A model generated the notes under the pieces. It made no database searches. It was not told the origin of the DNA and worked only from the letters and a program-made list of their open reading frames with translations. A program made the translations under genes and the position numbers. From Alphaproteobacteria bacterium (lineage in GTDB: Bacteria; Pseudomonadota; Alphaproteobacteria; Bin95), in contig CBDBGH010000003.1 in assembly GCA_965205265.1 (NCBI GenBank), positions 1,138,749 through 1,202,748 on the forward strand: a stretch of DNA of 64,000 nucleotides, given 5' to 3'. Numbering within the stretch: the stretch's first letter is position 1; the number at the start of each line of letters is the position of its first letter. This document shows positions 1-56,737 of this stretch, in pieces.

Positions 1-982
1 CCGCATCGCCGAAGGGCAGGCGTTTCGATTCCTGGTCCTGCGGGTCGTGGTCGCTCGCTATGGCGTCGATGGTGCCGTCGGCCAGCGCTTCCACCACGGC
101 GCGCCGGTCGGCCTCGGACCGGAGCGGCGGGGAGACCTTGCCGAATGTCCGGTATTCGCCGATGGCGGTCTCGTTGAGCGCGAAATAATGCGGGGCCGTG
201 TCGCAGGTGACCCGCCAGCCCTCGCGCTTGGCCCGGCGGATGAGCGTAAGCCCCTCTGCGGTGGTAACATGGGCCGCGTGGTAGCGCCCGCCGGTCAGCG
301 CAACCAGGCGCAGGTCCCGGTCGATCATCATCGCTTCCGCAGCGGCGGGAATTCCGGGCAGGCCGAGGCGGGTCGCGATCTCGCCTTCGGTCACCACGCC
401 GCCCCTTGCCAGTTCGGGCTCTTCCGGGTGCTGCACGATGAGCGCATCGAAGGCCTGCGCATAGGAGAGCGCCCTGCGCATTACGCGGGCGCTGGAGACC
501 GCGCGCAGCCCGTCGGTGAAGGCGAGCGCGCCCGCGTCCTTCAGCATGCCGAGCTCCGTCAGCTGCTCGCCCTTGAGGCCGCGCGTGAGGGCTCCGTAGG
601 CGAACACCTTGACCCGCCGGACCTCGCGCGCGCGCCGGGCGATGAACTCGACGACATTCACGTCGTCGATCACCGGCGAGGTGTTGGGCAGGGCGACGAC
701 GGCGGTGACGCCGCCGGCTGCCGCCGCCAGGCTGCCGCTGTCGATGGTCTCCTTGTGCTCGCCGCCGGGTTCGCCCAGCTGCACCCGCATGTCCACAAGG
801 CCGGGCGCGGCGCAGGCGCCTTCGCAGTCGATGACGGCCGCGCCCTCCGGCGCCGATCCGGCGGCGACCTCCGGGCCGATTGCGGCAATCCTGCCGTCCT
901 CGATCAGGATGCCGCCGGGCGCGTCCAGCCGCGTCGCCGGGTCCAGCAACCGGGCGTTGACGAGCGCCGTGCGCCTGGTCAT
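1..982 (-). CDS. pyrC: dihydroorotase-type amidohydrolase (PyrC/PyrX); C-terminal part runs off the window
   Basis: The minus-strand frame is open from the ATG at 982 to position 1. It is absent from the ORF track because there is no stop in the window. My translation reads [36 protein letters not shown]...[14 protein letters not shown]...IASDHDPQ. The ATGA start/stop overlap with pyrB is the usual pyrB-pyrC pairing. Confidence 0.85.
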
Positions 983-1944
983 GCGGCCTCGGCGCGGTTC
1001 GACTGCAGCTTGCGCGTCAGGAGGTCGAGGCAGGCCATGCGGACCGCGACGCCCATCTCCACCTGCTCCTGGATCAGCGAGCGGTGGATGTCGTCGGCCA
1101 CGTCGCTGTCGATCTCCACGCCCCGGTTCATCGGCCCGGGATGCATCACCAGCGCATCCGGCCGGGCCGCCGCCAGCTTGCGGGCGTCGAGGCCGAAGAA
1201 GTGGAAATACTCCCGCACGGACGGCACGAAGCTGCCCTGCATCCGCTCCGTCTGGAGGCGCAACATCATCACGATGTCCACGCCGTCGAGGCCGGCCTGC
1301 ATGTCGTGGAAGACCTCGACGCCGAAGCGGTACATCTCGGCCGGCAGCAGGGTGGGCGGCGCCACGACCCGCACGCGCGTGCCCATGGCGTTGAAGAGGT
1401 GGATGTTCGAGCGCGCGACGCGGCTGTGCATGATGTCGCCGCAAATCGCGACCGTGAGGCCGGAGAGGCCGCCGAGGCGCCGGCGGATCGTCAGCGCGTC
1501 GAGCAGGGCCTGGGTCGGGTGCTCGTGCCAGCCGTCGCCGGCGTTGATGACCGCCCCGTCCACCTTCTCCGACAGCAGGTGGACGGCGCCGGACTGCGGG
1601 TGGCGGACCACCAGCAGGTCGGGCCGCATGGCGTTGAGCGTGAGCGCCGTGTCGAGCAGCGTCTCTCCCTTCTTGATCGCGCTGATGTCGGGGGAGATGT
1701 TGATGACATCGGCGCCGAGCCGCTTGCCGGCCAGTTCGAAACTGGTGCGGGTGCGCGTCGAGGTCTCGAAGAAGACGTTGATGACGGTGCGCCCCTTCAG
1801 CACCGCGACCTTCTTGTCGTCGCGCCGGCTCTGCTCGACATAGCTCTCGGACAGGTCCAGCAGGGCCGAAATCTCGCCGGGCGCAAGGCCCTCTATGCCA
1901 AGCAGGTGACGATGCGGGTAGCTGTATGGAGCGGCATCGGCCAT
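979..1944 (-). CDS. pyrB: aspartate carbamoyltransferase catalytic subunit
   Basis: ORF 979..1974 carries the motifs [21 protein letters not shown] and HPGPMNRG. I trimmed the start to the ATG at 1944 ([20 protein letters not shown]); the track start at 1974 is a TTG. Confidence 0.95.
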
Positions 1945-4409: not shown

Positions 4410-6692
4410 CTATTCCTCCGCCGCCGCCTGCTCGTCCACCGCCTTGCGGACCTTGGGCGGCGACATGGGCAGTTCCGTCAGCCGGATGCCGATGGCGTCC
4501 TGGATGGCATTCGCCATCGCGGCCATGGGCGGCACGATCGGCACCTCGCCGACCCCGCGCGCGCCGTAGGGATGCCTCGGGTTCGGCACCTCGACGACGA
4601 CGGTGTCGATCATCGGCAGGTCCGAGGCCACCGGGATGCGGTAGTCGAGGAAGCCCGGATTCTCCAGCCGGCCCTTGTCGTCGTAGATATATTCCTCGTT
4701 CAAGGCCCAGCCGATGCCCTGCACGGCGCCGCCCTGGATCTGCCCCTCGACATAGGAGGGATGGATCGCGCGGCCCGCGTCCTGCGTCGCCAGATAGCGC
4801 AGCACCTTCACATGGCCGGTCTCCCGGTCCACCTCGACATCGACCAGATGCGTGCCGAAGCCGGGGCCCGCGCCCTGGGCGTTGAGCGAGGAGGTGGCGG
4901 CGATGGGCCCGCCGGTGCGGCCCGACTTGGCGGCGAGGTCCTCCAGCGTGAGCGGCTCGAAATCGCCCGCATTGCTGCCGGCGGGAACGGCCTTGCCGTC
5001 CTGCCACTCGACCGCCTCGACCGGGATGTCCCAGGTCTTGGCGGCGCGCGCCTTCAGCTCGTTCACAACGGACTTCGACGCCTCCACCACCGCCATGCCG
5101 GTGGCGAAGGTGACGCGGCTGCCGCCGGTGAGGAAGCAGTAGCCGACCGAGCTCGTGTCCGCGACGATCGGGCGGACGCGCTCCACATCGATGCCGAGCA
5201 CCTCGGCCGCCATCATCGCCATGGAGGCGCGGGAGCCGCCGATATCCGGGTTGCCGGTGGCGACCACGGCCGTGCCGTCCTCGTTGATGTTGACGGTCGC
5301 AGAGGACTCGCCGCCGATATTGAACCAGAAGCCCGCGGCGACGCCGCGCCCCTGGTTCGGCCCGAGCGGCACCTTGTAGTTCGGGTGGTCCTTCACCGCC
5401 TCCAGCGTCTCGACGCAGCCGATATCGCCGAAGGTCGGGCCGTAGGCCGCCTTGGTGCCCTTCTTGGCGGCGTTCTTGAGCCGGAGCTCGACCGGGTCCA
5501 TGCCGAGTTCGCGCGCGAGCTCGTCCACCGCGCTCTCGACGCCGAAGTTCGAGATCGGCGCGCCGGGCGCCCGGTAGGCCGCGACCTTGGGACGGTTGGT
5601 CACGACGTCATAGCCGGTGATGCGCACGTCCTGGAGGTCGTACACCGCGAACGCGGTCATGCAGCCGGGCCCGACCGGCGAGCCCGCATAGGCGCCGGCC
5701 TGGAACTTCAGCACGGCGTCGCCGGCGACGATGGTGCCGTCGCGCTTGGCGCCGATCTTGACCCAGACGGTGCCGCCCGAGGTCGGGCCGGAGCCGCGGA
5801 ACACCTCTTCGCGGGTCATCGCCATCTTGACCGGCCGCCCGGACTTCCGCGACAGCACGACCGCCAGCGGCTCCAGATAAACCAGCGTCTTGCCGCCGAA
5901 GCCGCCGCCGATCTCCAGCGGCGTCACGCGGATTTCGGAAATGTCGATGCCGAGCAGCTTGGCCACATAGGCGCGGACCATGAACTGGCCCTGGCTGGAG
6001 CAGTAGATCTGCACCTGCCCGTCCGCGGCGTATTGCGCGACGCAGGCATGCGGCTCGATGTAGCCCTGGTGGACGGGCGCCGTCTTGTATTTGCGCTCGA
6101 TGACGATGTCGGCCTTCTCGAACGCCGCGTCCACATCGCCCAGCTGGAACACCATGCGCTTGGCGACATTTGACGGGGTTGTCGGCTTCGGATCGACGCC
6201 CGAGGTGAACATGTCGTCATGGAGGACGGGCGCGCCTTCCACCATCGCGTCCTCGACGTCGATGACATGCGCCAGCACCTCGTAGTCCACCTCGATGGCC
6301 GCGAGCGCGGCATCGGCGGCGGCGGCGCTGGTGGCCGCGACCGCGGCGACGGCATGGCCGTCATAAAGCGCCTTGTCGCGCGCCATCGTGTTGCCGGACA
6401 TGTCCTTGAAGTCCGCCGGGCCTTCGCCCACAAAGGCTTCCTCGCTGGTGATCTCGGGCATGTCGGCGGCGGTCATCACCGCCTTGACGCCCGGGATCGC
6501 CTCCGCCTTCGAGGTGTCGATGGACCGGATGCGGGCATGGGCGTGCGGGCTGCGCAGCACCTTGCCCACAAGCTGGCCGGGAAGCTGGAAATCGGCCCCG
6601 AACTGGGCGCGGCCGGTGACCTTGTCCACGCCGTCCGGGCGGATCGGCCTGGTTCCGACGACCTTGAGGTCGGGGGTTCCGTCGGGTGCCAT
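4410..6692 (-). CDS. xanthine dehydrogenase/aldehyde oxidase family molybdopterin-binding large subunit (CoxL-like)
   Basis: ORF 4410..6887 trimmed to ATG 6692 (MAPDGTPDLKVVGTRPIRPDGVDKVTGRAQFGADF...). The loop AAYRAPGAP replaces the CODH form-I AYxCSFR signature. Confidence 0.9.
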   Translation of the reverse strand: MAPDGTPDLKVVGTRPIRPDGVDKVTGRAQFGADFQLPGQLVGKVLRSPHAHARIRSIDTSKAEAIPGVKAVMTAADMPEITSEEAFVGEGPADFKDMSGNTMARDKALYDGHAVAAVAATSAAAADAALAAIEVDYEVLAHVIDVEDAMVEGAPVLHDDMFTSGVDPKPTTPSNVAKRMVFQLGDVDAAFEKADIVIERKYKTAPVHQGYIEPHACVAQYAADGQVQIYCSSQGQFMVRAYVAKLLGIDISEIRVTPLEIGGGFGGKTLVYLEPLAVVLSRKSGRPVKMAMTREEVFRGSGPTSGGTVWVKIGAKRDGTIVAGDAVLKFQAGAYAGSPVGPGCMTAFAVYDLQDVRITGYDVVTNRPKVAAYRAPGAPISNFGVESAVDELARELGMDPVELRLKNAAKKGTKAAYGPTFGDIGCVETLEAVKDHPNYKVPLGPNQGRGVAAGFWFNIGGESSATVNINEDGTAVVATGNPDIGGSRASMAMMAAEVLGIDVERVRPIVADTSSVGYCFLTGGSRVTFATGMAVVEASKSVVNELKARAAKTWDIPVEAVEWQDGKAVPAGSNAGDFEPLTLEDLAAKSGRTGGPIAATSSLNAQGAGPGFGTHLVDVEVDRETGHVKVLRYLATQDAGRAIHPSYVEGQIQGGAVQGIGWALNEEYIYDDKGRLENPGFLDYRIPVASDLPMIDTVVVEVPNPRHPYGARGVGEVPIVPPMAAMANAIQDAIGIRLTELPMSPPKVRKAVDEQAAAEE

Positions 6693-6693
6693 G

Positions 6694-7173
6694 TCAGGAT
6701 GCTCCTCGCATGTCGGCGGCCGTGTCGAGCACGGCGCGGATGATCTTGTCGTAGCCGGTGCAGCGGCAGAGATTGCCGGCCAGCCAGTAGCGCGCCTCCT
6801 CCTCGGTGGGATTCGGGTTGCGCTCCAGCAGCGCCCTGGACGCGACCAGGAAGCCCGGCGTGCAGATGCCGCACTGCAGCGCCGCATATTCCAGGAACTT
6901 CTGCTGCAGCGGGTGCAGCCGGTCCCCGTCGGCCATGCCCTCGATGGTCTGGATGGCGTGGCCCTCGGCCTCGACGCCCAGCATCAGGCAGGAGCAGACG
7001 AGGCGGTCGTCGACCGTGATCGAGCAGGCGCCGCAGTCGCCCGTGGCGCAGCCTTCCTTGGTGCCGGTCAGATGCAGCTCGTCGCGGAGCACGTCGAGCA
7101 TGGTCTGCTCGGTGTTGCAGAGGAACTCGACCGGCTCGCCGTTGATCGTGGTGGAAATGTGGTGTTTCGCCAT
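6694..7173 (-). CDS. (2Fe-2S)-binding small subunit of the molybdoenzyme (CoxS-like)
   Basis: The 159-aa protein carries GCATGDCGACS and CGICTPGF...CRCTGY cysteine motifs. Confidence 0.95.
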   Translation of the reverse strand: MAKHHISTTINGEPVEFLCNTEQTMLDVLRDELHLTGTKEGCATGDCGACSITVDDRLVCSCLMLGVEAEGHAIQTIEGMADGDRLHPLQQKFLEYAALQCGICTPGFLVASRALLERNPNPTEEEARYWLAGNLCRCTGYDKIIRAVLDTAADMRGAS

Positions 7174-7182
7174 GGTTTCGGC

Positions 7183-8049
7183 TCAGGCTCCCGCGCGCTT
7201 GAAGGCAGTGGCGGCCGCGCGGCGCGCCAGCACGCCTGCGACCTTGGTGCGGTATTCGATGGTGCCGCGCTTGTCGTCGATGGGCTTGCAAGCGGCCCGT
7301 GCGGCGGCGTCGAGCGCGGCGAGCGCCGCATCGTCGAGCCTGCTGCCGACCAGCGCCGCAGCCGCATCGGGGACGACCAGCACGGTCGGCGCGACGGCCC
7401 CGAGCGACACTTTCGCCGCTGTGCAGGCGCCGCCCTCATCCAGTGTCACGCAGACGCCGGCGCCGACCACGGCGATGTCCATTTCCGTGCGCGGAATGAA
7501 GCGCAGATAGGCGTCTCCCGTGCGCGCCGGCTTCGGCGGCAGCTTGATCGCGACCACCATCTCGCCCTTGGCGAGCGAAGTGCGGCCCGGCGCCGTCGGC
7601 ACATCCTCGACCGGAACCTCGCGCTCCCCGTCCGGCCCGGCGATGACGACCGTTGCGCCCGCCGCCGCCAGCGCCGGCACGGAGTCCGCAGCGGGCGAGG
7701 CATTGCAGAGATTGCCGACAAACGAGGCCCGGCCCTGAATCTGCGTCGAGCCGATCAGTTCGACCGCTTCGACGATGCCCGGCCAGTCCTTCGACAGCGT
7801 CGCGTGCTCGCCCGCCTCGGCGCCGGAAACGGATGCGCCGATCCGGTAGCCGCCGCCCTCGGTCGTGATTGTCCGGAGTTCGGGAATCCGCTTGGTATCG
7901 ACGATCAGGTCCGGCTTCAGAATGCCGGAACGCAATTGGACGAGGAGGTCCGTGCCCCCCGCCAGCACCCTGGCGACGCCGCTTGCGTTCGCCAGCAACT
8001 GCACCGCTTCGGCCACCGTCGTGGGCGCAGCGAAACTCGGTGCGTACAT
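7183..8049 (-). CDS. FAD-binding medium subunit of the molybdoenzyme (CoxM-like)
   Basis: The 288-aa protein contains VLAGGTDLLVQLR and ...KRGTIEYRTKVAGVL, typical of the FAD-binding PCMH subunit. It is the first gene of the M-S-L operon. Confidence 0.9.
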   Translation of the reverse strand: MYAPSFAAPTTVAEAVQLLANASGVARVLAGGTDLLVQLRSGILKPDLIVDTKRIPELRTITTEGGGYRIGASVSGAEAGEHATLSKDWPGIVEAVELIGSTQIQGRASFVGNLCNASPAADSVPALAAAGATVVIAGPDGEREVPVEDVPTAPGRTSLAKGEMVVAIKLPPKPARTGDAYLRFIPRTEMDIAVVGAGVCVTLDEGGACTAAKVSLGAVAPTVLVVPDAAAALVGSRLDDAALAALDAAARAACKPIDDKRGTIEYRTKVAGVLARRAAATAFKRAGA

Positions 8050-8725: not shown

Positions 8726-10125
8726 GCCGCTGCTGCGGGCGCGGCGGCGAGCACGGCGGCGTCGTGGCGGGGGAGCTCCATCAGCACCGCTTTCAGGCGC
8801 CCGGCCGCTGTCTCGCCCACGGCGTCGGCAGCAAGCGCGTCGTATTTGGAGAGCAGCGCCGCCTCGCGGCCCGGATGGCCCGGCGCACCGGACGGATTGA
8901 GGGTTTCCGACCGCTCCACCCGTCCGTCGGGCCCGGCGATCTCGACCCAACCCGGGTAATCGGCCGGATAGAGGCCGTCGAGTTCGGCGTCGGGCACCAA
9001 TTCGATCCGCCGGGCGAGTTCCACCAGTTCGGGGTCGTTCAGCCGCTCGTCGGTATATTGCGCCGGCAGCGCGTTGCCGTCCGCGAGCGCTGCGGCGATG
9101 GTGAAGCGTGCGCTCATCTGGCCGTTGAGGGCGGTCCCCGGCTCGTAGTCGAAGCCGCATTGCACATCGACCACCCGCGGCAGGCCGGCGCGCACGGTCT
9201 CGTCCGCGCCGGGCATGCGCCCGAGGCGCTGGCGGAGTTCGCGCGCGGCATCGACATAGGAATGCAGCGAGCCGCAGCAGGAATAGGGCTTGAAATAAAC
9301 CTGTTCGACGGCCCATTCGCTGCCGAGCCCGTCCAGCAGGCGCTCCGGCCTTGCGTCGTCGGAGAAGGCGTCGAGGAAACCGCCGTCGTCGGTCTCCAGC
9401 ACGCTCGCCGGGCCTGTGAAACCCATCGCCGCGAGTTCCGCCGCCATGACGCCGGCATGCGCCGCGCGGCCCGGATGCAGGCGCTTGCTCATGGCGCCGT
9501 CCGCGTTGAAGGCGAACAGGCCCGATCCCTGCGTCGCGCCAAGCCCGAGCGCCCAGGCTGCCGCCTCCTCGTCCAGCCCGAGAAGAACGGCTCCCGCCGC
9601 CGCCGCGCCGAGCGGGCCGCACACGCCCGTAAGGTGCCAGCCGCGCAGCCGGGCAGCATTGGGATCGAGAGCGCGGGACGCACGAACCATCACTTCGTAG
9701 CCGGCGACGACCGCCGTTTCGATGGCCTCGCCATCGGAGCCGAGACGTTCGGCGAGCGCAAGCGCCGCCGGGACGGCCGCCGCGCCCGGATGCAGCTTGG
9801 CAATGAAATCGTCGAGCTCGAAGGCATGAGCGGCAACGCCGTTCACGAGCGCTGCGTCGGCGGGTCTGAGCGACGGGGCCGCCTCCCCCCAGACGGTCGC
9901 AAGACCCTCGCCACTACCCGGCAGCCCGGCTCCCCGGCGCGCCCAGGAGAGCGCCGTTTCGGCCCAGAATTCCTGCCGCCCGTGAAGCGCCGCGCCCATT
10001 GTGTCCAGCAGGGCGAGGCGCGCGGCGCGGCGGGTGCTCTCCGGCAGGGCTTCGGGCCGAAGGCCGGCCAGCCAGCGCGCGAGCTCGGCAGTCAGGGCGG
10101 GGGTTTCGCTGCGGTCGCGCGGCAT
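8722..10125 (-). CDS. MmgE/PrpD family protein (2-methylcitrate dehydratase-like)
   Basis: ORF 8722..10218 trimmed to MPRDRSETPALTAELARWL... It contains VNGVAAHAFELDD, WHLTGVCGPLGAAAA and KPYSCCGSLH, which are PrpD-family blocks. Confidence 0.85.
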   Translation of the reverse strand: MPRDRSETPALTAELARWLAGLRPEALPESTRRAARLALLDTMGAALHGRQEFWAETALSWARRGAGLPGSGEGLATVWGEAAPSLRPADAALVNGVAAHAFELDDFIAKLHPGAAAVPAALALAERLGSDGEAIETAVVAGYEVMVRASRALDPNAARLRGWHLTGVCGPLGAAAAGAVLLGLDEEAAAWALGLGATQGSGLFAFNADGAMSKRLHPGRAAHAGVMAAELAAMGFTGPASVLETDDGGFLDAFSDDARPERLLDGLGSEWAVEQVYFKPYSCCGSLHSYVDAARELRQRLGRMPGADETVRAGLPRVVDVQCGFDYEPGTALNGQMSARFTIAAALADGNALPAQYTDERLNDPELVELARRIELVPDAELDGLYPADYPGWVEIAGPDGRVERSETLNPSGAPGHPGREAALLSKYDALAADAVGETAAGRLKAVLMELPRHDAAVLAAAPAAAA

Positions 10126-10256
10126 GGCAGGTCTCCGAAAGCAGGGGGCAGTCCGCCGGGAGGGTTCCAACGGTGGCGGTTTCGGGTGAAGAATGCAGGA
10201 ATCGCGGTCCGCTCGCAAACCGGCCGGCCGCCTCGCAGAAACGGGAGACAGCGGCG

Positions 10257-11450
10257 ATGCCGGGTCCGTTCCACGGCCTGAGAGTGATCGACCTGACGAC
10301 GGTGGTCGTAGGTCCCTATACGAGCCAGTTCCTCGGGGACCTCGGCGCCGATGTCGTCAAGGTGGAGGCGCCCGAAGGCGACCTCTCGCGGCTGGTCGGG
10401 CCCCACCGCAATCCGGGTATGACCTCGCAGTGGATGCATGTGAACCGGAACAAGCGCAGCGTCGTTCTCGACCTCAAGACGGAAGGCGGCAAGCAGGCGA
10501 TGGACCGGCTGCTCGGGACAGCCGACGTTTTCGTCCACAATATGCGGCCCGAACCCCTCGCGCGCCTCGGCCTCGACTATGCGCGCGTGTCCGGGATCAG
10601 GCCGGACATCGTGTTCTGCAATATCTGGGGGTTCGGGCGCCGCGGCCCTTATGCCGGTCGGGCGGCCTTCGACGACGTGATCCAGGCCGGCGTCGGCCTC
10701 GCCGCGCTGGAAGGTTTCGCCACGGGCGAGGCGAAATACGTGCCGATGCTGATCGCCGACAAGACGACGGCGCTGTTCGCGGCGCTCGCGGTCTCGGGCG
10801 CGCTCTACCACCGTCTTGCGACCGGCGAGGGGCAGGAGGTCGAAGTGCCGATGTTCGAGAGCATGGCCGGGTTCGCGCTCGTCGAGCATCTCTGGGGCGA
10901 GAGCTTCGTGCCGGCCCTGGACCGGGTGGGCTCGGACCGCCACGCCACGCCGAAGCGCTGGCCGATTGCCACGAAGGACGGGTTCATCTGCGTGCTGGCG
11001 ACGTCCGACAAGCACTGGCGCGCCCTGCTGGAGGTTGCCGGGCGGCCGGGGCTGATGGACGACCCGCGCTATGCGACCCGTCCGGCCCGTTTCCGGCACC
11101 GGGACGAGATCAACGCCGAACTCGAAACATGGATGCAGGAAAAGACCACCGAGGAATGGGCGGGGCCGCTGTCGGAGGCGGGCGTGCCCTGCATGCCCGT
11201 GCAAAGCCTCGAACAGGTGGTCGCGGACCCGCATCTGGCCGAGGTCGGCTTCTGGCACGAGATGGACCATCCGAGCGAGGGCCGGCTCAGGTTGATGGCG
11301 CCTTCTCTCGCGCTCAACCGCTCGCCTGCCTCGATCCGCCGCCCGCCGCCGCGCCAGGGCGAGCATACGCGCGAGGTGCTGGCGGAAATCGGCTTCGACG
11401 CCGCCGGGGTCGAGGACCTGTTGGCCTCCGGCGGGGCGATTGCGGAATAA
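10257..11450 (+). CDS. CoA-transferase family III (CaiB/BaiF-like)
   Basis: ORF 9999..11450 trimmed to ATG 10257 behind GGGAGA. The protein begins MPGPFHGLRVIDLTTVVVGPYTSQFLGDLGADVVKVEAP. Confidence 0.9.
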   Translation: MPGPFHGLRVIDLTTVVVGPYTSQFLGDLGADVVKVEAPEGDLSRLVGPHRNPGMTSQWMHVNRNKRSVVLDLKTEGGKQAMDRLLGTADVFVHNMRPEPLARLGLDYARVSGIRPDIVFCNIWGFGRRGPYAGRAAFDDVIQAGVGLAALEGFATGEAKYVPMLIADKTTALFAALAVSGALYHRLATGEGQEVEVPMFESMAGFALVEHLWGESFVPALDRVGSDRHATPKRWPIATKDGFICVLATSDKHWRALLEVAGRPGLMDDPRYATRPARFRHRDEINAELETWMQEKTTEEWAGPLSEAGVPCMPVQSLEQVVADPHLAEVGFWHEMDHPSEGRLRLMAPSLALNRSPASIRRPPPRQGEHTREVLAEIGFDAAGVEDLLASGGAIAE

Positions 11451-11812: not shown

Positions 11813-12223
11813 GTGCGCGTCCTGCTCGATACGACCTATCTTTACAGGTTCATGGAAGCGGCAGCGGCGTTGACGGAAAACGACCGCCGGTTTTTCGGTA
11901 TGCGGGAGCTGCAGCTCTATGCGAGCGCGGTGTCGATCTGGGAGATGCGGCTGAAGCACAGTGCCCGCCATGCCTCGGGCGAGCGCAAGAGCCGGTTCGA
12001 TCCGAACGACGTGATTCCCGTGCTGGAAAACCAGGGTGTGACATTCCTGCCGATGACGATACGCCACGCGGCGCGCGCCCTCGATACGCCGCTCGGCCAC
12101 AGGGACCCGTTCGACGAATTGCTGCTCGTCCAGGCGCAGGAGGAAGGGCTCAGGCTGCTCACCGTGGACCGTCTCCTCATCGGCCATCCGCTCGCGGTCG
12201 CCTCGCACGAGGCCGGATCGTGA
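11813..12223 (+). CDS. vapC: type II toxin, VapC family PIN-domain ribonuclease
   Basis: The 136-aa protein has a GTG start. MRVLLDTTYL, SIWEM, HRDPFDELLLVQAQ and LLTVD supply the conserved PIN acidic residues. Confidence 0.85.
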   Translation: MRVLLDTTYLYRFMEAAAALTENDRRFFGMRELQLYASAVSIWEMRLKHSARHASGERKSRFDPNDVIPVLENQGVTFLPMTIRHAARALDTPLGHRDPFDELLLVQAQEEGLRLLTVDRLLIGHPLAVASHEAGS

Positions 12224-12780
12224 TGCAGGACGTGCCGGCGGGGCACATCGCCGCTGTCGTCACCGACCTGGAGATGACGGCGCCGCCCGCCGATCCCGGC
12301 CCTACCGCGCCGCTGGTAAGGTGGCCTGACCCGGACCTCAATGCTTACCGCGCACTGTTTCGGGAGATCGGCGAGGAATGGCTCTGGTTCTCGCGCCTGT
12401 CTCTCCCGGACGAGGCGTTGGCGGCCATCCTGCGCGATCCGCAGGTGGAGCTCTATGCGGGACCGGACAGGGAGAGCATCGTCGAGCTCGATTTTCGCGG
12501 GCATGGGGCGTGCGAGATCGCGTTTTTCGGGCTGGCGCCGTTCATGACCGGACGCGGGAAAGGGCGCCGGCTGATGGCGGCGGCGCTCGCCCTGGCCTGG
12601 CGCGAGGGCATCGGCCGGGTCTGGCTTCATACCTGCACGCTCGACCACCCGGCGGCGCTTCGCTTCTACCTTTCCTGCGGCTTCCGCGCGGTGCGCCGGC
12701 GGGTCGAGATCGAACCCGACCCGAGGCTCGACGGGCGGATCGCGCCGGAAGCCGCGGCGCACCATCCCGTCATCCGTTGA
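12223..12780 (+). CDS. GNAT family N-acetyltransferase
   Basis: ORF 12220..12780. It contains ...EIAFFGLAPFMTGRGKGRRLMAAAL...VWLHTCTLDHPAALRFYLSCGF, the acetyl-CoA binding R/Q-x-x-G-x-G/A motif. ATG 12223 overlaps the vapC stop (TGATG). Confidence 0.8.
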   Translation: MQDVPAGHIAAVVTDLEMTAPPADPGPTAPLVRWPDPDLNAYRALFREIGEEWLWFSRLSLPDEALAAILRDPQVELYAGPDRESIVELDFRGHGACEIAFFGLAPFMTGRGKGRRLMAAALALAWREGIGRVWLHTCTLDHPAALRFYLSCGFRAVRRRVEIEPDPRLDGRIAPEAAAHHPVIR

Positions 12781-12868
12781 ACGCGGCTTCCAAGAGCCGC
12801 ATTGCACCGGGCCGCAGGAATCCCATAGACCGGTTTCGATGGACATTTCCGAATGGGGAACGAGGAAC

Positions 12869-13657
12869 ATGCAAATATCCATGACCGGGCGCACGGCGCT
12901 CATTACCGGCGGCAGCGACGGCATGGGCCGGGCGATGGCGCTGAAATTCGCAGGCGCCGGCGCATCGGTCGCCATCGCCGCCCGCCGCCAGGGGCCGCTC
13001 GACGAGGCGCTGGCGGCGCTCGAAGCGGTTGCGCCCGGCCGTGCGGCCGCTTTTTCCGCCGATGTCAGCACGGCCGAAGACTGCGAACGGATCTACCGCG
13101 ATACCGTCGCGCGGTTCGGCGCCGTGGATATCCTGGTCAACAATGCCGGGACCTCGCAGACCGGAAAGTTCGAGGAGATCGACGACGCCACCTGGCAGGC
13201 CGACCTCGACCTCAAGCTGTTCGCCGCGATCCGGCTGTCCCGGCTGGCGCTGCCGGGCATGAAGGCGCGCGGGTGGGGCCGGATCGTCAATGTGCTGAAT
13301 GTGGGCGCGAAGGCGCCGCAGGCCGGCGGCGCGCCGACGGCCGTCTCGCGCGCGGCCGGCATGGCGCTCACCAAGGTGCTGGCGGGCGAGGGCGCGCCCC
13401 ACGGCGTGCTCGTGAATGCGCTGCTCACAGGCTATATCCGCTCCGGCCAGTGGGTCCGCCGGCATGAGGCCACGGCGCCGGACGCCGACTTCGATGGCTG
13501 GCTCGCGGAGATGGCCGGCAAGCTCGGCGTGCCGCTCGGGCGTTTCGGCGAGGCCGAGGAGTTCGCCAATATCGCCTGTTTCCTCGCTTCCGACGCCGGA
13601 TCCTACATCACGGGCACGGCGATCAATGTGGACGGGAACCGCAGCCCGGTCGTGTAA
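12869..13657 (+). CDS. classical SDR family oxidoreductase
   Basis: ORF 12839..13657 contains TALITGGSDGMGRA, NNAG and a C-terminal ITGTAINVDGN. The start is ambiguous: ATG at 12839, 12869 or 12881. Confidence 0.85.
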   Translation: MQISMTGRTALITGGSDGMGRAMALKFAGAGASVAIAARRQGPLDEALAALEAVAPGRAAAFSADVSTAEDCERIYRDTVARFGAVDILVNNAGTSQTGKFEEIDDATWQADLDLKLFAAIRLSRLALPGMKARGWGRIVNVLNVGAKAPQAGGAPTAVSRAAGMALTKVLAGEGAPHGVLVNALLTGYIRSGQWVRRHEATAPDADFDGWLAEMAGKLGVPLGRFGEAEEFANIACFLASDAGSYITGTAINVDGNRSPVV

Positions 13658-16640: not shown

Positions 16641-17201
16641 GTGTCCGAAGACCCCGATATCGACGATCTGGAGCGGCGCATGAACGGCGCCATCGAGGCG
16701 CTGAAACGCGAATTCGCAGGGCTGAGAACCGGCCGGGCAAGCACCTCCCTTCTCGAGCCGCTGACTGTGGAGGCCTACGGCTCGGAAATGCCCATCAACC
16801 AGGTGGCGACGCTCGGCGCGCCGGAACCGCGCATGCTGACGGTGCAGGTCTGGGACAGGAGCAATGTGAAGGCCGTCGAGCGGGCCATTCGCGAGTCGGC
16901 TCTGGGACTCAATCCCGCTGCGGACGGCCAATTGATCCGGGTGCCGATCCCCGAGTTGAGCGAAGAGCGCCGGACGGAGCTCGCGAGGGTCGCTCACCGC
17001 TATGCGGAGCAGGCGCGGGTCGCGGTGCGCAATGTGCGCCGCGACGGCATGGACAAGCTCAAGCGCATGGAGCGGGCGGGAGACCTTTCCCAGGACGAAC
17101 AGCATCTATGGTCCGAAGAAGTGCAGGAGCTGACGGACCGCTTCGTCAAGGAAATCGACAGCGCCGTGGACGCCAAAGAATCCGAAATCATGCAGGTGTG
17201 A
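16641..17201 (+). CDS. frr: ribosome recycling factor
   Basis: The 186-aa protein has a GTG start. It contains ...[30 protein letters not shown]...[13 protein letters not shown]. Confidence 0.95.
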
Positions 17202-17206
17202 CCGCC

Positions 17207-17944
17207 ATGGCGGTCGAAACACGGGCGTTTCCCGCGGCGCTGGCGCTGCCTCGCCATGTCGCGATCATCATGGATGGCAACGGGCGCTGGGCTTCGGCGC
17301 GGGGCCTGCCGCGCGCGGCCGGCCACAGGCGCGGTGCGGAGGCGGCGCGCGCCGCGGTGCGGACTGCGGCCGAACTCGGCATCGAGATTCTGACGCTCTA
17401 CACGTTTTCCTCCGAGAACTGGAGCCGGTCGGCGCAGGAGGTGGACGACCTGCTCGGCCTGCTGCGTTACTATCTCGGCAGGGAACTCGAGGATATGCAC
17501 CGCAACGGCGTGCGGCTGCGAATGATCGGGGAACGGGACCGCTTGCCGGCGGACCTCCGCGAACGGATCGCCCATGCCGAGGCCGTGACTGCCGGCAACG
17601 ACGCCATTCTGGTGCAGGTCGCGGTCAGCTATGGCGGCCGTGACGAGATCGTGCGCGCTGCCCGGCGCCTTGTCGAGGCGGGAGCGGCAGGCGGGCTCCG
17701 GCCCGGCGACATCGACGAAGCCGCCTTCGCAGACAGGCTGGACACGGCCGGCATACCCGATCCCGACTTGCTGGTCCGCACCGGCGGCGAAATGCGAATC
17801 AGCAATTTCCTTCTCTGGCAGGCGGCTTACGCAGAGCTCTTCTTTACCGAGCGGCTATGGCCGGAGTTCGCCAAAGCCGATCTGGAAGCGGCTCTGGTCG
17901 CATTCAGCCGGCGCGAGCGGCGTTATGGCGTCCGCGCTGCCTGA
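17207..17944 (+). CDS. uppS: isoprenyl transferase (undecaprenyl diphosphate synthase)
   Basis: ORF 17108..17944 trimmed to ATG 17207. It contains HVAIIMDGNGRWA, LTLYTFSSENWSR and RTGGEMRISNFLLWQ. Confidence 0.95.
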   Translation: MAVETRAFPAALALPRHVAIIMDGNGRWASARGLPRAAGHRRGAEAARAAVRTAAELGIEILTLYTFSSENWSRSAQEVDDLLGLLRYYLGRELEDMHRNGVRLRMIGERDRLPADLRERIAHAEAVTAGNDAILVQVAVSYGGRDEIVRAARRLVEAGAAGGLRPGDIDEAAFADRLDTAGIPDPDLLVRTGGEMRISNFLLWQAAYAELFFTERLWPEFAKADLEAALVAFSRRERRYGVRAA

Positions 17945-50226: not shown

Positions 50227-50733
50227 ATGACGGATTGGCAGGAGGACCTTTACCGGGTCCTGAAGGAGTTCGAGGTCAGCCAGGTGAGCTATGTGCCGGA
50301 CGCCGGCCACCGGGTGCTGATCGACAGGTCGCTCGCGGACCCGGAGATGCATTCCGTGCCGCTCACCACGGAGGAGGAAGGCATCGCCATGCTTGCCGGT
50401 GCGCATCTCGGCGGCGCGCGCGGCGTCGCGGCCATGCAGTCCTCCGGCATCGGCAATTGCGTCAACATGTTCTCGCTGGTGAAGAACGGCCTCTTCCCGA
50501 TGCTGGTGCTTGTGTCGATGCGCGGCGATTTCGGCGAGGGCAATCCCTGGCAGATGCCGATGGGGCAGGCGGTCGAGCCGGTGATGGAGGCGATGGGCTT
50601 CGTCACCATGCGGATCGACCGGCCCGAGGATGTGGAGGGCGCCATGCGGGCGGCCTGCACCATGGTGTTCAAGTCGGGGCAGGCGGTGGGCGTTTTGCTC
50701 ACGCAGAAATTGATTGGCGCCAAAGCGTTTTAG
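50227..50733 (+). CDS. sulfopyruvate/phosphonopyruvate decarboxylase-like TPP enzyme, alpha (PYR-domain) subunit
   Basis: The 168-aa protein contains VSYVPDAGHRVLI...PLTTEEEGIAMLAGAHLGG.RGVAAMQSSGIGNCVN. This is the ComD-like split TPP enzyme pattern. Confidence 0.7.
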   Translation: MTDWQEDLYRVLKEFEVSQVSYVPDAGHRVLIDRSLADPEMHSVPLTTEEEGIAMLAGAHLGGARGVAAMQSSGIGNCVNMFSLVKNGLFPMLVLVSMRGDFGEGNPWQMPMGQAVEPVMEAMGFVTMRIDRPEDVEGAMRAACTMVFKSGQAVGVLLTQKLIGAKAF

Positions 50734-52364: not shown

Positions 52365-54452
52365 TCAGGGGTCGTTGGACAGATCAGGCGGCGCTGCGCG
52401 CGGCGGTGCGGGTACGGAAACGCGCCCGGTGACTTTCGGGCGAAAGGCGGGAGAGGTCCTGCCGGAGGAGAAGCCGGGGATGGGCCGCACGGGCGCGCCT
52501 TCATGCGCCGCCGCCATGAAATCGCGCCAGATGCGCGCCGGCAGGCCGCCGCCGGTCACCTCGTCCATCGGCGCGCCGTCGTCATTGCCGACCCACACGC
52601 CGGCGACCAGGTTGCCGGTGAAGCCGATGAAGAAGGCGTCGCGGAAGGACTGGCTGGTGCCCGTCTTGCCGGCGGCCGGCCGGCCGGCGAGCCGGGCGGC
52701 CCTGCCGGTGCCCTCGTTCACCGCGGCGGACAGCAGGTCGTTCATGGACGCCACCACGCCGGGCGCCACGGCCTCGCCCGCGCCGGTGCCGGCCCGCTCG
52801 AACACGCCCTCGATCTCCCGAACGCCGTAGGGGATCACGCCTGCGCCGCCATTGGCGAAGGTGGCGTAGGCGCCGGTCAGCTCGATCAGCCGCACCGCGC
52901 TCGAGCCGAGCGCAATGGTGAGATCGGGCGCGAGGTCCGATGTAATGCCGAGGCGTCGCGCCGCTTCGGCGACGCGGGCGCGTCCGGCGCGGTCCGCGAG
53001 GCGGACGGCGGCGGCATTCAGCGATTGCGCGAAGGCCTCCCGCATGGCGATCGAGCCCCGGAACCGCCCGTCGAAGTTCCGGGGGGCCCATCCACCCACA
53101 TTCACGCGGGCGTCGGTCACGGTGCTGTCCGGACTCAGGCCCCGCTCCAGCGCCGCCATATAGACGAACAGCTTGAAAGCCGAGCCCGGCTGGCGGAGCG
53201 CCTGCGTCGCGCGGTTGAACTGGCTGGCGCCGTAGTCCCTGCCGCCGACCATGGCCCGCACCGCGCCATCCGGCGACATGGCGACAAGGGCGGCCTGGGA
53301 CGGGTTCGTCCTGCCCGCCAGCGCTGCGGCGACCGTTTCCGCCGCGAGGCGTTGCAGGCCGGGATCGAAGGTCGTGGCGATACGGAGGTCCCGGTCCACC
53401 AGCCCCAGGCGCCGGTTCACCTGCGCCAGCACCCAGTCGGCGAAATAGCCCCGCCCGTCCGGTTCCGTTGCGGTCCGCAATGTCGAGGCGGCCGTCCGCG
53501 CGGCTTGCTCGGGCGAAATGAAGCCGACGCTTGCCATCGCCTTCAGCACAAGGCGCCCCCGCTCCGCCGCGCCGCCCGGATTGGCGGCAGGCGACAAGCG
53601 GCTCGGCGCTTTCAGCAGGCCGGCAAGCACGGCGGCCTCCCAGAGATCGACTTCGGCCGCCGGCTTGGAGAAGAAGCGCCGTGCGGCGGCGTCGATGCCG
53701 TAGGCTCCGGAACCGAAATACACCCGGTTCAGATACAGCGAGATTATGTGGTCCTTGTCGTAGCGCCACTCCAGCCAGAAGGCGAGCAGGGCCTCGCGGA
53801 TTTTCCGCTCGATAGACCGCTCGGGCGTCAGGAAGATGTTTTTGGCAAGCTGCTGAGTGATCGTGCTGCCGCCCTGGCGCACTCTTCCCTCGACGATGTT
53901 GACCCAGAGAGCCCGGACAAGGCCGATCAGATCGATACCGCTATGGTCGTAAAAGCGCCGGTCCTCGATTGCGATAACCGCGCGCGGCACGTAGTCGGGC
54001 AGTTCGGCCGCATTTACCGGGTCGCCGTAAAGATCGCCCTTGGCGAGGAGGGGATTACCGGCCGCATCGTTGAGAAAAATACCGGGGCGCCGACCGCTTT
54101 CCGCGGCCTGTTCGACATCGGGCAGGGTGTAGGAAAAGTAGGCGAGCGCCGCGATCAGCGCGACCAGGCCCCAGACAAAGGCGACCGCCGTCCCGGAGAC
54201 GAGGCGCCGCAGAAGGGACCGGCGCGCGCCGCCCGTCTTTCTTGTCCGGCGTCCGGTCCGGCTCGACGATTTCCGTTTGGGCGCCACATTCCCGGGCCGT
54301 TTGTTCCCGAGCGTTCTAGCCGGCGAATGTGGCGATTCCGGGGCCGGCCCGGATTTGCCGCCCGACCCTTTGCGCAGGCTCGGACCGCCCCGGCGCCGCT
54401 GCCCCGTTCCTTTCCTGCCCGTCCTGTCGCCCTGGCGCGCCATGGGCGTCAT
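52365..54452 (-). CDS. bifunctional class A penicillin-binding protein (PBP1A family transglycosylase/transpeptidase)
   Basis: The 695-aa protein carries glycosyltransferase motifs EDRRFYDHSGID and GGSTITQQL, and transpeptidase motifs SAFK, SLN and KTGT. It has a long Arg/Lys/Gly-rich N-terminal tail before the TM segment. Confidence 0.93.
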   Translation of the reverse strand: MTPMARQGDRTGRKGTGQRRRGGPSLRKGSGGKSGPAPESPHSPARTLGNKRPGNVAPKRKSSSRTGRRTRKTGGARRSLLRRLVSGTAVAFVWGLVALIAALAYFSYTLPDVEQAAESGRRPGIFLNDAAGNPLLAKGDLYGDPVNAAELPDYVPRAVIAIEDRRFYDHSGIDLIGLVRALWVNIVEGRVRQGGSTITQQLAKNIFLTPERSIERKIREALLAFWLEWRYDKDHIISLYLNRVYFGSGAYGIDAAARRFFSKPAAEVDLWEAAVLAGLLKAPSRLSPAANPGGAAERGRLVLKAMASVGFISPEQAARTAASTLRTATEPDGRGYFADWVLAQVNRRLGLVDRDLRIATTFDPGLQRLAAETVAAALAGRTNPSQAALVAMSPDGAVRAMVGGRDYGASQFNRATQALRQPGSAFKLFVYMAALERGLSPDSTVTDARVNVGGWAPRNFDGRFRGSIAMREAFAQSLNAAAVRLADRAGRARVAEAARRLGITSDLAPDLTIALGSSAVRLIELTGAYATFANGGAGVIPYGVREIEGVFERAGTGAGEAVAPGVVASMNDLLSAAVNEGTGRAARLAGRPAAGKTGTSQSFRDAFFIGFTGNLVAGVWVGNDDGAPMDEVTGGGLPARIWRDFMAAAHEGAPVRPIPGFSSGRTSPAFRPKVTGRVSVPAPPRAAPPDLSNDP

Positions 54453-54476: not shown

Positions 54477-55727
54477 CTAGGCCACGGCGCGGTGGGCCTG
54501 GCTTCGCGGCAGGATGAGCAGGCTGCCGAGAAGCTGCATGCCCTTGTCGTCGTCTCCGGCCGCCCGCTCGCGCAGCGCGAGCAGCGCCCTGCCGCCGGCC
54601 GTCTCGCCCCAGAACCAGTCCGAGAGGTCCCGCGAGGCTGCCGCTCCGGGCTGCGCCGTGGCCGCCTCGGTGTAGAAGGCCATCAGGTCGTCGCAGGCGA
54701 GCTTCAGCGCGCGGGAGAGCTTGCGTTCCGGTCCCGGATCGTCCGGCTCCCCGCCATCGGCGTACCGGCAGATCATCCGGACCGCTTCCTCGATTTCGTA
54801 GCCGCTGGCGCCGACCGTGGTCCGCCCGCGCCGTTCCTTCGCAAGATCCCACCACGGCCGAAGGCGGGCTATTTCATCCGCGACGAGCCGCTCGCGGTTG
54901 CCGTCCGGGGCGGTCTCGGGCCGGGGAAGGGACACGGGACAGGCCCAGCCCTCGTAATCCGCAGGCTCCGGCGCGGAATCGGGAAATTCCTCCAGCACCG
55001 GGCCGGCGGGCCGGTCCAGCAGCGCAAGGGCGGCGCGCAGCACCCGGAGCTGGAAATCCGGGTTGTCCGGCGCGCCCAGCGGCCGGCCGAGCTCGAAGGG
55101 CACGGACAGCGTGCGGGGATTGGCGATGGCCTCGGCATGTTCGTGAACCAGGGCGATGGCCACCGTGGCGATACCCTCGCGCTCAAGATAGTGGGCGAGC
55201 GCGCACACGGCGCGCGTGCAGTTCGGTCAGACGGGCACCAGCAGCGCCGTATCCACGCCTTCGGCCCGCATGGCGGCCGCGACATCCTCCGCGAAGGGCT
55301 GCATCGGCGCGGGGTCGCTCGCGCCCATGAAGGAATAGTGGTGGTCCGCGACGCCGCCGATTTCGCCCGCGGCCGCCATCTCCTTGAGGCGGTCGAGCGG
55401 GTAAACGATGTTGAGGTCCTGCTGGAAGCCGGTGCGGTCGTAGTTGACCGAGATATGGCTCATCACGATGTCGCCCGCGCCCGCATCGGCCGGCAGCACC
55501 CGGTAATCGACGGCCCCGGGGCCGAACGGGCGGTCTCCGCGCCTGCCGAGGCCGGCGGAGGAAACCACGGCGATCCGGCGTTCGGAAAGGGGGGGCCCGG
55601 AGACGAAGGAGCCGCCCTCCATTTCGGGCAGCGGCAGGCGGGCGAGATGCCGGGCAACGCCCTCCGGCATGTCGGCGTAGCGGGTCATGGATGCTCCTTG
55701 CGGAATCGGCGACGATGCGCGAAACAA
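54477..55727 (-). CDS. glycine/sarcosine/betaine/D-proline reductase selenoprotein B (GrdB/PrdB) family protein with an in-frame TGA (probable Sec) at 55227-55229
   Basis: Track ORFs 55227..55727 and 54477..55208 are in the same frame. They are separated only by a TGA plus six sense codons. The joined protein reads ...AEGVDTALLVPV-U-PNCTRAVCALAHYLEREGIATVAIAL...LGRPLGAPDNPD. A U-x-x-C context is the hallmark of GrdB-type selenoproteins. Confidence 0.7.
55199..55215 (-). promoter_or_regulatory. candidate bacterial SECIS hairpin
   Basis: The mRNA reads GCGCGC-CGUGU-GCGCGC: a 6-bp stem and a 5-nt loop containing GU, 17 nt in total. It begins exactly 11 nt 3' of the in-frame UGA. Confidence 0.55.
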
Positions 55728-55756: not shown

Positions 55757-56737
55757 ATGCAGGTCAAAGCCATCCGGATCGACAGGCCGGGACCGCCGTC
55801 GGCGATGGAATTGCGCACGGTGACGGTCGGCGAGCCGGGCCCCGGCGAAGCGCTGATCCGCCATACCGCTGTCGGGTTGAACTATATCGACACCTACCAC
55901 CGCTCGGGGCTCTACGAACTGCCGCTGCCGAGCGGGATCGGCAGCGAGGGGGCGGGCGTCGTCGAGGCGGTCGGCGAAGGCGTCGGGCATATAGCGCCGG
56001 GCGACAGGGTGGCCTATTCGGGCGGCGCGCCCGGTTCCTATTCGGAAGCGCGCGTGATGCCCGCCGACCGGCTGGTGAAGCTGCCGGACGACATCGACGA
56101 CAGGCAGGCCGCAGCCATGATGCTCAAGGGCATGACCGTCGAATATCTGCTGAACCGCACCTTCAAGGTGTCGCCGGGCCAGACCATCCTGTTCCACGCG
56201 GCGGCCGGCGGCGTCGGGCTGATCGCCGGCCAGTGGGCCAAGGCGCTCGGCGCAACCGTCATCGGCACGGCCGGCGGCCCCGAGAAATGCGAACTGGCCA
56301 AGGGTTACGGCTACGACCACATGATCGACTACAAGCAGGGCGGCATCGCCCGGCAGGTGCGCGAGCTTACGGGCGGGGCCGGCGTTCCGGTGGTCTATGA
56401 CAGCGTCGGCAAGGCGACCTGGGACGAATCGCTGGACTGCCTCGCGCCGCGCGGGGTGATGGTGTCTTTCGGCAATGCCTCCGGTCCGGCCGCGCCGTTT
56501 GCGCCCGGCATTCTCGCGGCCAAGGGCTCGCTCTACCTGACCCGGCCGTCCCTGGTGCACTACACGTTGACGCAGCAGGACGTGCAGGCATCGGCCGATG
56601 CGCTGTTCGCCATGGTGAGTTCGGGCAAGGTCAGGATCGAGGTGAACCAGACCTATGCGCTGGCCGATGCCGCGAAGGCGCATGAGGATCTTGAGGGACG
56701 CCGGACCACCGGTTCGACCGTCCTGCTGGTGGAGTAG
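55757..56737 (+). CDS. qor: NADPH:quinone oxidoreductase (zeta-crystallin-type MDR)
   Basis: The 326-aa protein contains VGLNYIDTYHRSGLY, AAAGGVGL and a C-terminal KAHEDLEGRRTTGSTVLL. Confidence 0.88.
   Translation: MQVKAIRIDRPGPPSAMELRTVTVGEPGPGEALIRHTAVGLNYIDTYHRSGLYELPLPSGIGSEGAGVVEAVGEGVGHIAPGDRVAYSGGAPGSYSEARVMPADRLVKLPDDIDDRQAAAMMLKGMTVEYLLNRTFKVSPGQTILFHAAAGGVGLIAGQWAKALGATVIGTAGGPEKCELAKGYGYDHMIDYKQGGIARQVRELTGGAGVPVVYDSVGKATWDESLDCLAPRGVMVSFGNASGPAAPFAPGILAAKGSLYLTRPSLVHYTLTQQDVQASADALFAMVSSGKVRIEVNQTYALADAAKAHEDLEGRRTTGSTVLLVE

Follow-up and report, generated by a model that had tools for sequence, protein, structure and literature searches.

Two adjacent open reading frames (ORFs) in a 64,000-nucleotide stretch of an alphaproteobacterial contig (CBDBGH010000003.1 of assembly GCA_965205265.1; the whole stretch is called the window, GC 68%) raise the question of whether the TGA codon between them ends a protein or is read as selenocysteine (Sec). 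In the mechanical ORF list, the frames 55227..55727 and 54477..55208 both lie on the minus strand and share a common frame. The upper ORF opens at TTG and the lower one at GTG, and the gap between them consists of the TGA (55229-55227) and six sense codons (CCG AAC TGC ACG CGC GCC). Joined across this gap, the two translate as ...ALLVPV*PNCTRAVCALAHYLEREG..., and the TGA (asterisk) is the sole internal in-frame stop. This arrangement, from which the sequence-only reading of the window had proposed a selenoprotein, was confirmed from the sequence. We conclude that UGA codon 154 is very probably recoded as Sec, giving one selenoprotein of 403 residues. The Sec status of the product is strongly supported by comparative data, from which the protein-level reading is deduced. 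The gene and its parts were placed as follows.

54477..55688, minus strand: whole PrdB-like selenoprotein gene as predicted, from ATG 55688 through UGA codon 154 to the TAG stop at 54479-54477, 403 aa
55694..55699, minus strand: Shine-Dalgarno-like AAGGAG, 5 nt 5′ of ATG 55688, read from the sequence
55227..55229, minus strand: in-frame UGA, codon 154, predicted to be read as Sec; TGA at the aligned codon in 81/81 sequences, Cys in full-length homologues
55218..55229, minus strand: U-P-N-C redox motif (UxxC), putative Sec154 plus Cys157, with an invariant Cys at U+3
55199..55215, minus strand: hairpin GCGCGC-CGUGU-GCGCGC resembling a selenocysteine insertion sequence (SECIS), nt 15-31 counted from the U of the UGA, 11-nt spacer
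55014..55688, minus strand: N-terminal PrdB-like alpha/beta domain, about residues 1-225, from the TIGR04483 alignment and an AlphaFold model
54480..55013, minus strand: C-terminal extension, about residues 226-403, mostly helical, from conserved columns and the AlphaFold model

The start was placed at ATG 55688 and not at TTG 55727, as the N-termini of homologues align from the Met of this ATG. Together with the ribosome-binding site AAGGAG, this alignment sets the product at 403 aa, shorter than the 416 codons first proposed.

Orthologues were collected by a tblastn scan of one genome per GTDB species, which gave 80 loci covering residues 1-403 at 48-89% identity. These loci and the window make up a set of 81 sequences with a gene GC of 49-72%. 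The loci span Alphaproteobacteria, Entotheonella, Desulfobacterales, Geobacter, Binatia, Rhodopila, and others. In 80/80 loci the aligned gene contained exactly one in-frame stop, which was always a TGA and always at the codon that aligns with that of the window. Among database proteins, the 33 closest (67-91% identity) were all C-terminal fragments of about 243 aa. Thirteen full-length homologues (405-427 aa, 40-47% identity) carried Cys exactly at the TGA position, in the context PV-C-PNC(S/T)R. Homologues therefore have either Cys (the full-length forms) or TGA (all 80 loci) at the aligned position. Selection on the two sides of the TGA was compared in the close clade (the window and L004-L014, 12 species). 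The ratio of nonsynonymous to synonymous substitution rates (dN/dS) was 0.117 upstream and 0.146 downstream of the TGA, with dS of 0.60-0.67. Neither the window nor its 11 close relatives had further stops or frameshifts, and both halves are under purifying selection without decay. The codons next to the TGA also vary as translated codons do. At U+3, where Cys is invariant, 57 of the 81 sequences use TGC and 24 use TGT, a mixture that matches the expectation for a translated codon, and the Pro codon after the TGA is CCN with a free third position. The conserved TGA, the Cys homologues, and the purifying selection, along with the selection on the hairpin and the linkage to sel genes described below, support the sequence-only proposal of a Sec-decoded selenoprotein. 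Of the refuting conditions named with that proposal, the residue at the aligned position, decay in close relatives, and lack of a conserved hairpin were tested, and none of the three refutes it. The conserved TGA, the translated inter-ORF codons, and the dN/dS values without decay bear out its further statement that the locus is neither two genes nor a pseudogene.

The hairpin after the UGA (17 nt) was compared with the bSECIS model (PMC13188914), which allows a loop of 3-9 nt, a stem of 4-16 bp, a G in the first two loop positions, a UGA-to-loop distance of 16-37 nt, and a minimum free energy (MFE) of -7.5 kcal/mol or lower. With a 6-bp stem, a CGUGU loop, 17-nt spacing, and a free energy of -10.1 kcal/mol, it lies within these quoted limits. 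It was also compared with the SECIS of E. coli fdhF, whose 17-nt upper stem-loop occupies nt 15-31, 11 nt from the UGA, with G23/U24 in the loop and a bulged U17 (PMC8659212); the size and spacing given for this element in the sequence-only reading match the source. Both elements have a 17-nt stem-loop at nt 15-31, an 11-nt spacer, and a G-U in the apical loop. In contrast to fdhF, the loop of the window family is C-G-U-G-U or G-U-G, its GU lies at nt 22-23 instead of nt 23-24, and there is no bulged U. From the likeness to fdhF, we infer that the window hairpin is a candidate SelB-binding SECIS.

The conservation of the hairpin was then considered. It was kept at a fixed spacing, with no indels, in 81/81 sequences. 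The core stem pairs were almost invariant in the ungapped 81-sequence alignment. Standard pairs between nt 15-21 and nt 25-31 were formed in 85% of cells, compared with 26-64% when the partners were slid by 1-3 nt. Three pairs showed compensatory changes, namely nt 15/31 (G-C to U-A in L051 and L052), nt 16/30 (C-G to G-C or A-U in L048 and L053), and nt 17/29 (G-C to C-G or U-G). Synonymous change was suppressed over the same region. In the close clade, dS was 0.127 over the 11 codons after the UGA and 0.667 further downstream, and codons +3 to +9 were without synonymous variation. Among the 81 genes, the third positions of the stem codons showed an entropy of 0.74 (Thr), 0.29 (Arg), and 0.17 bits (Ala), all three lower than any of 62 other conserved four-fold sites (mean 1.53, minimum 0.88 bits), while the flanking Pro (+1, 1.52 bits) and Leu (+10, 1.71 bits) were ordinary. 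The equivalent sites of four Cys-form genes formed 3-5 non-contiguous pairs and had no GUG loop. The covariation is thus genuine, though sparse, and selection at synonymous sites is stronger evidence for the hairpin.

Low synonymous entropy was also seen 5′ of the Sec codon. The Val just before the UGA (mostly GTC) had 0.88 bits and the Leu at -4 had 0.99 bits, against the mean of 1.53 bits among the 81 genes. These two codons (-1 and -4, positions 55230-55241) hold the lowest-entropy four-fold sites after the hairpin codons, which hints at constraint on this side as well.

Several results weigh against Sec decoding of the window gene. Within the window, 113 of the 1252 TGA triplets (9%) have a downstream hairpin that passes the bSECIS criteria; because such a share of TGAs passes in DNA of 68% GC, the hairpin alone is weak evidence. 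The 91-nt region folded no better than its shuffles (z = 0.38). The initial description of a SECIS-like hairpin at canonical spacing was thus right as to the position, the 11-nt spacer, and the bSECIS criteria, but taken by itself the hairpin is no more than chance would supply, and its significance comes from the comparative data only. With an element this conserved, covariation was sparse and limited to 7 cells in 3 pairs. RNAalifold retained only 4 pairs with almost no covariation term, owing to the near-invariance of the element. A G-G mismatch occurred at nt 17/29 in 33/80 sequences, and the seventh pair was not formed in 38/80. A scan of the whole window against Rfam at gathering thresholds matched no family. 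No tRNA-Sec, selA, selB, or selD was found within the 64-kb window, including by tblastn of SelA, SelB, and SelD. A search for SelD homologues recognised none from the chromosomes of the window clade among the 120 matches listed.

Some minor points concern the hairpin. The site of the G-G mismatch (nt 17/29, alignment columns 23/35) coincides with the bulged U17 of the E. coli fdhF SECIS, which may be a coincidence. A shifted 7-bp register (nt 11-27), which is the MFE fold of the window sequence (-8.6 kcal/mol for the hairpin alone), was rejected because it breaks in relatives with G at nt 25. A permissive Rfam scan of 55150-55260 gave only chance matches, mir-1909 and toga_FSE.

The genomic surroundings of the orthologues were examined for the Sec machinery. 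With ARAGORN, tRNA-Sec was searched within 6 kb of the gene in 80 loci and was found in 9/80, compared with a rough chance expectation of about 0.2 loci if there is one tRNA-Sec per genome of about 4 Mb. Eight of these nine loci also have adjoining selA, selB, and/or selD. In all, selA, selB, or selD adjoin the gene in L019, L021, L023, L026, L029, L046, L059, L068, L089, and L090. The sel genes of the eight loci with tRNA-Sec score above the NCBIfam equivalog cut-offs, with 390 bits for selB, 584 bits for selA, and 420-508 bits for selD. In L089 and L090, which were reached through database proteins, selA and selB stand next to a split PrdB-like gene. The PrdB-like gene is directly beside selA, selB, selC, or selD in at least 11 lineages.

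L090 (1-8747) was arranged as a "selenium island" that contains selA, selB, two unannotated genes, a split UGSC gene, a gene for a Pyr_redox_2-SelD fusion, and the split PrdB-like gene, followed by OCD_Mu_crystall and peptidase M17 genes. UGSC is a known selenoprotein family. The UGSC-family gene of this island lies in two ORFs (4643-4939 and 4961-5188), presumably owing to another Sec-UGA. In L085, from a metagenome-assembled genome of Halieaceae, a further UGSC-family gene (17056-17248) and a Cys-form PrdB-like gene are 8 kb apart. SelD fused to an N-terminal pyridine-nucleotide-disulphide oxidoreductase domain (PF07992) was found in L023 (3473-5914) and L090 (5212-7440), and also in many of the SelD homologue matches.

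A mechanism can be proposed after the E. coli paradigm. The UGA at codon 154 would be recoded during translation, with the GC-rich hairpin at nt 15-31, 11 nt after the UGA and with the loop C-G-U-G-U, acting as a bacterial SECIS. By analogy, the SECIS would recruit SelB-GTP-Sec-tRNA(Sec) to the ribosome, and Sec would be inserted without termination. The product would have a PrdB-like alpha/beta domain, with U154-x-x-C157 at the N-terminus of a helix, and a family-specific helical C-terminal domain. If it works as GrdB and PrdB do, the product would be a thiol- or selenol-dependent reductase with Sec154 as the catalytic nucleophile and Cys157 resolving the intermediate.

Because the sequence-only reading had placed the gene in the GrdB/PrdB family, we were interested in how close it is to these reductases. 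Pfam GRDB (PF07355) matched with 30.9 bits (cut-off 22), but over residues 81-151 only, ending 3 residues before the UGA. The top NCBIfam match was TIGR04483 (PrdB), with 99.3 bits, E = 2e-28, and residues 33-224 aligned to positions 26-218 of the 238 of the profile. The equivalog cut-off of this model is 300 bits, of which the window protein falls short. In the GrdH, GrdF, and GrdB models, residues 77-223 aligned to the C-terminal third, and the subfamily model TIGR01918 gave 48.4 bits, below its cut-off of 65.45. Homology to GRDB and PrdB therefore stood, but with these cut-offs missed the protein is neither a canonical GrdB nor a canonical PrdB. By its sequence, the gene is best described as a member of a PrdB-like family and not as a canonical PrdB.

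Residues of about 226-403 matched no Pfam or NCBIfam family. Within this C-terminal extension, Cys250 (codon 54941-54939) is invariant, and the motifs RRGRTT and EAxTAxPG are conserved. The structure was taken from an AlphaFold model of the Cys homologue P0036 of Falsiroseomonas selenitidurans (42% identical; predicted local distance difference test, pLDDT, 88; predicted template modelling score, pTM, 0.88). In this model, an alpha/beta N-domain with alternating strands and helices is followed by an all-helical C-domain, with helices from about residue 268 to the end. In P0036 the equivalent of the Sec is Cys157, which follows strand 150-154 and precedes the N-terminus of helix 158-173. Such a site, between a strand and the N-terminus of a helix, is the usual location of a redox CxxC motif. 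No relatives were found in the PDB by single-sequence or profile search, and Foldseek of the P0036 model against PDB and BFVD returned nothing below E = 0.01, with template modelling (TM) scores of 0.25 or less.

The family has been met before in marine metagenomes. The Sargasso Sea selenoproteome (Zhang, Fomenko, Gladyshev 2005, PMC1088965) contained 42 'Proline reductase PrdB' selenoproteins with a UxxC motif, and its supplement lists AACY01078217 (...LLTPVuPNCTRSVGALSYYLEREG...) as a selenoprotein. A later Global Ocean Sampling (GOS) study (Zhang and Gladyshev 2008) gave 235 Sec and 110 Cys sequences (pfam07355, UxxC), and a 2006 survey listed 'proline reductase' selenoproteins in Geobacter and Anaeromyxobacter. 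The window gene has the marks of this marine family: a PF07355 score of 30.9 bits (above 22), U-P-N-C, and 38% identity to AACY01078217 in the post-Sec region (240 residues, E = 9e-41). PV-U-PNCTR, the two domains, FPLGRPLG, RR..RT, and EAxTAxPG are common to the marine family and the window gene, and the Sec/Cys dichotomy is common to both families. What sets the window gene apart is its divergence, as an orthologue from an alphaproteobacterial clade that is uncultured. That the family includes selenoproteins is thus already established, and the window gene adds an unannotated member to it. A literature search returned nothing on PrdB-like proteins or on sponge or alphaproteobacterial selenoprotein B.

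The family name suggests a genuine PrdB subunit of D-proline reductase, and of the other explanations of the locus this one survives best, though it is improbable. The best NCBIfam match, TIGR04483, extends over almost the whole profile, the family is named 'Proline reductase PrdB' in PMC1088965 and PMC2398784, and JGI calls the Cys forms 'D-proline reductase (dithiol) PrdB'. In some loci, the neighbours are related to proline or D-amino acids, as would suit it: L090 has OCD_Mu_crystall, and L089 has Ala_racemase together with DAO. As in clostridial PrdB, residues 33-224 cover almost the whole profile, with Sec in a UxxC motif at the corresponding place. However, at 99 bits the window protein stays below the 300 bits of the equivalog cut-off, and its C-terminus is longer by about 180 residues, an extra domain absent from the 238-position PrdB profile. 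The hosts of clostridial PrdB are amino-acid-fermenting Clostridia, whereas those of the window family are mostly Alphaproteobacteria. No prdA, prdC, prdD, or prdE lies near window-family genes in the loci annotated. Likewise, the protein resembles GrdB/GrdF/GrdH (PF07355, TIGR01918) in its GRDB match, the Sec-containing C-terminal third, and the UxxC motif, but only this third of GrdB is matched. The third Cys of the GrdB motif is missing: GrdB has UxxCxxC, whereas the window has UxxCxxxxC (U-P-N-C-T-R-A-V-C), in which UxxC is the conserved part, and the last Cys (U+8) is Gly or Ser in most relatives. None of grdA, grdC, grdD, and grdE was found near the gene in the annotated loci and the neighbour scan.

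The neighbourhood bears on the function as well, and here also some points count against the proposed role. Gly_reductase (PrdA/GrdE) was not among the families matched by at least 2 of the 128 immediate neighbours in 70 loci, nor was it in the Pfam-annotated loci L001-L003 and L084-L090; a partner may be encoded elsewhere in the genome. The family context varies, with sel genes and with genes for CoA transferase, zinc alcohol dehydrogenase, enoyl-CoA hydratase, MurJ, and the isocitrate-dehydrogenase family, and this variable context speaks against a D-proline reductase too. The function itself is assigned by analogy with GrdB/PrdB and should be read as putative. Because there is no recurring Gly_reductase neighbour and the context is variable, the gene is not to be filed as a D-proline or glycine reductase, and the enzyme is probably not a D-proline reductase. 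We tentatively propose, at somewhat less than an even chance, that the two-domain protein is a self-contained selenoenzyme with a chemistry or substrate unlike those of the characterised GrdB/PrdB reductases. It would have no pyruvoyl partner, the helical C-domain and Cys250 would replace the role of PrdA/GrdE, and it may also be a main reason why largely aerobic Alphaproteobacteria keep the Sec machinery.

A split gene is less probable still. Here the UGA would end a 153-aa chain, a 243-aa chain would start at GTG 55208, the hairpin would couple their translation, and the two chains would associate. The conserved TGA and the purifying selection on both halves would be accounted for as well, and the codon at U+7 is GTG in 64/81 sequences. 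In the other 17/81, this codon is GTT, GTC, or GTA, which are not start codons, so that no chain could start there. Moreover, the six codons from the TGA to the GTG evolve as coding sequence (P-x-C-T-R-A, with the invariant Cys encoded by TGC and TGT), the full-length homologues have Cys at the TGA within a CxxC, and the gene adjoins selA, selB, selC, or selD in 11 loci. All of these argue against two chains and for the recoding of UGA as Sec.

Two further ideas are hardly credible: that the UGA is read through by other means, through an alternative code in which TGA is a sense codon or through a near-cognate suppressor (Trp/Cys), and that the TGA stands for TGC/TGT by a sequencing error. Insertion of Cys would also yield a functional CxxC protein, but the conserved hairpin and the linkage to sel genes point specifically to Sec decoding. 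No other same-frame TGA junction in the 64 kb is credible, the candidate at 7185 being an ordinary stop, and thus TGA is not a general sense codon in the window. As for a sequencing error, 80 independent assemblies have the TGA.

A pseudogene, in which a nonsense mutation in a Cys-type PrdB-like gene would have left two decaying ORFs, has a probability close to nil: the two ORFs of the gene callers, the public protein sets that hold only the 243-aa fragment, and the lack of visible Sec machinery within the 64-kb window would fit it, but it is already contradicted by comparative sequence data, with the same TGA at 80/80 loci across phyla without a second stop or frameshift and with dN/dS, at dS of about 0.6, of 0.12-0.15 for either half.

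The Sec reading has consequences for annotation. Gene callers split the window gene into ORFs of 153 and 243 aa, the N-terminal piece standing as a separate GRDB-like ORF. In a library of 1.8 billion proteins, 148/150 of the nearest 50%-identity cluster representatives were fragments of about 200-280 aa that start just after the UGA. The early suspicion that annotation would split the gene was correct, as the 153-aa and 243-aa ORFs in public sets and these fragments show, and the mis-annotation of the family is systematic. The gene should be annotated as one selenoprotein coding sequence with a translation exception at codon 154, not as two hypothetical ORFs. The recoding itself is no discovery, because the family has counted among the selenoproteins since 2005. 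The family is among the most abundant ocean selenoproteins (235 sequences in GOS) and is labelled 'proline reductase'. This label is at odds with a family that has no proline reductase partner among its neighbours, lies below the equivalog model, and has no solved structural relative. The remaining interest lies in the function of an abundant, mislabelled selenoprotein family.

On one side of the window gene, divergent and on the plus strand, lies a gene for a zinc-type alcohol dehydrogenase/quinone oxidoreductase (55757-56737); on the other side, downstream, is a PBP1A gene (52365-54452, minus strand). Farther out were genes for enoyl-CoA hydratase, alpha/beta hydrolase, and AMP-ligase. This gene order is common to the close clade. 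In eight loci (L018, L023, L041, L054, L060, L064, L070, L073), the gene directly upstream is co-oriented and encodes a family III CoA transferase (PF02515, 338 bits); it ends a median of 16 nt before the PrdB-like gene, and the CoA transferase is possibly an operon partner in one sublineage. The Cys-form genes are near peptide-type ABC transporters, TauD dioxygenases, and an M19 dipeptidase.

Elsewhere in the window, a molybdenum hydroxylase operon of the CoxL/CoxS/CoxM type was found at 4410-8049.

4410-6887, minus strand: CoxL-type large subunit with molybdenum cofactor (MoCo)
6694-7173, minus strand: CoxS-type 2Fe-2S subunit
7183-8049, minus strand: CoxM-type flavin adenine dinucleotide (FAD) subunit

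Apart from the junction in the PrdB-like gene, only one same-frame TGA junction of coding-like composition occurs in the window, at 7185 (minus strand) in this operon. A second selenoprotein at this site was rejected; the TGA lies between the CoxM-like and CoxS-like genes and is the ordinary stop of the FAD subunit, 9 nt before the next ATG. Four ORFs, 47-1843 (plus), 8764-10281 (plus), 11917-13071 (minus), and 50227-50733 (plus), had coding-like codon-position GC and no Pfam match at E of 1e-5 or lower, and may in part be spurious high-GC frames. Otherwise the window is ordinary chromosome core, with rpsB-tsf-pyrH-frr, rseP, OmpH-lpxA-lpxI, transporters, and acyl-CoA metabolism.

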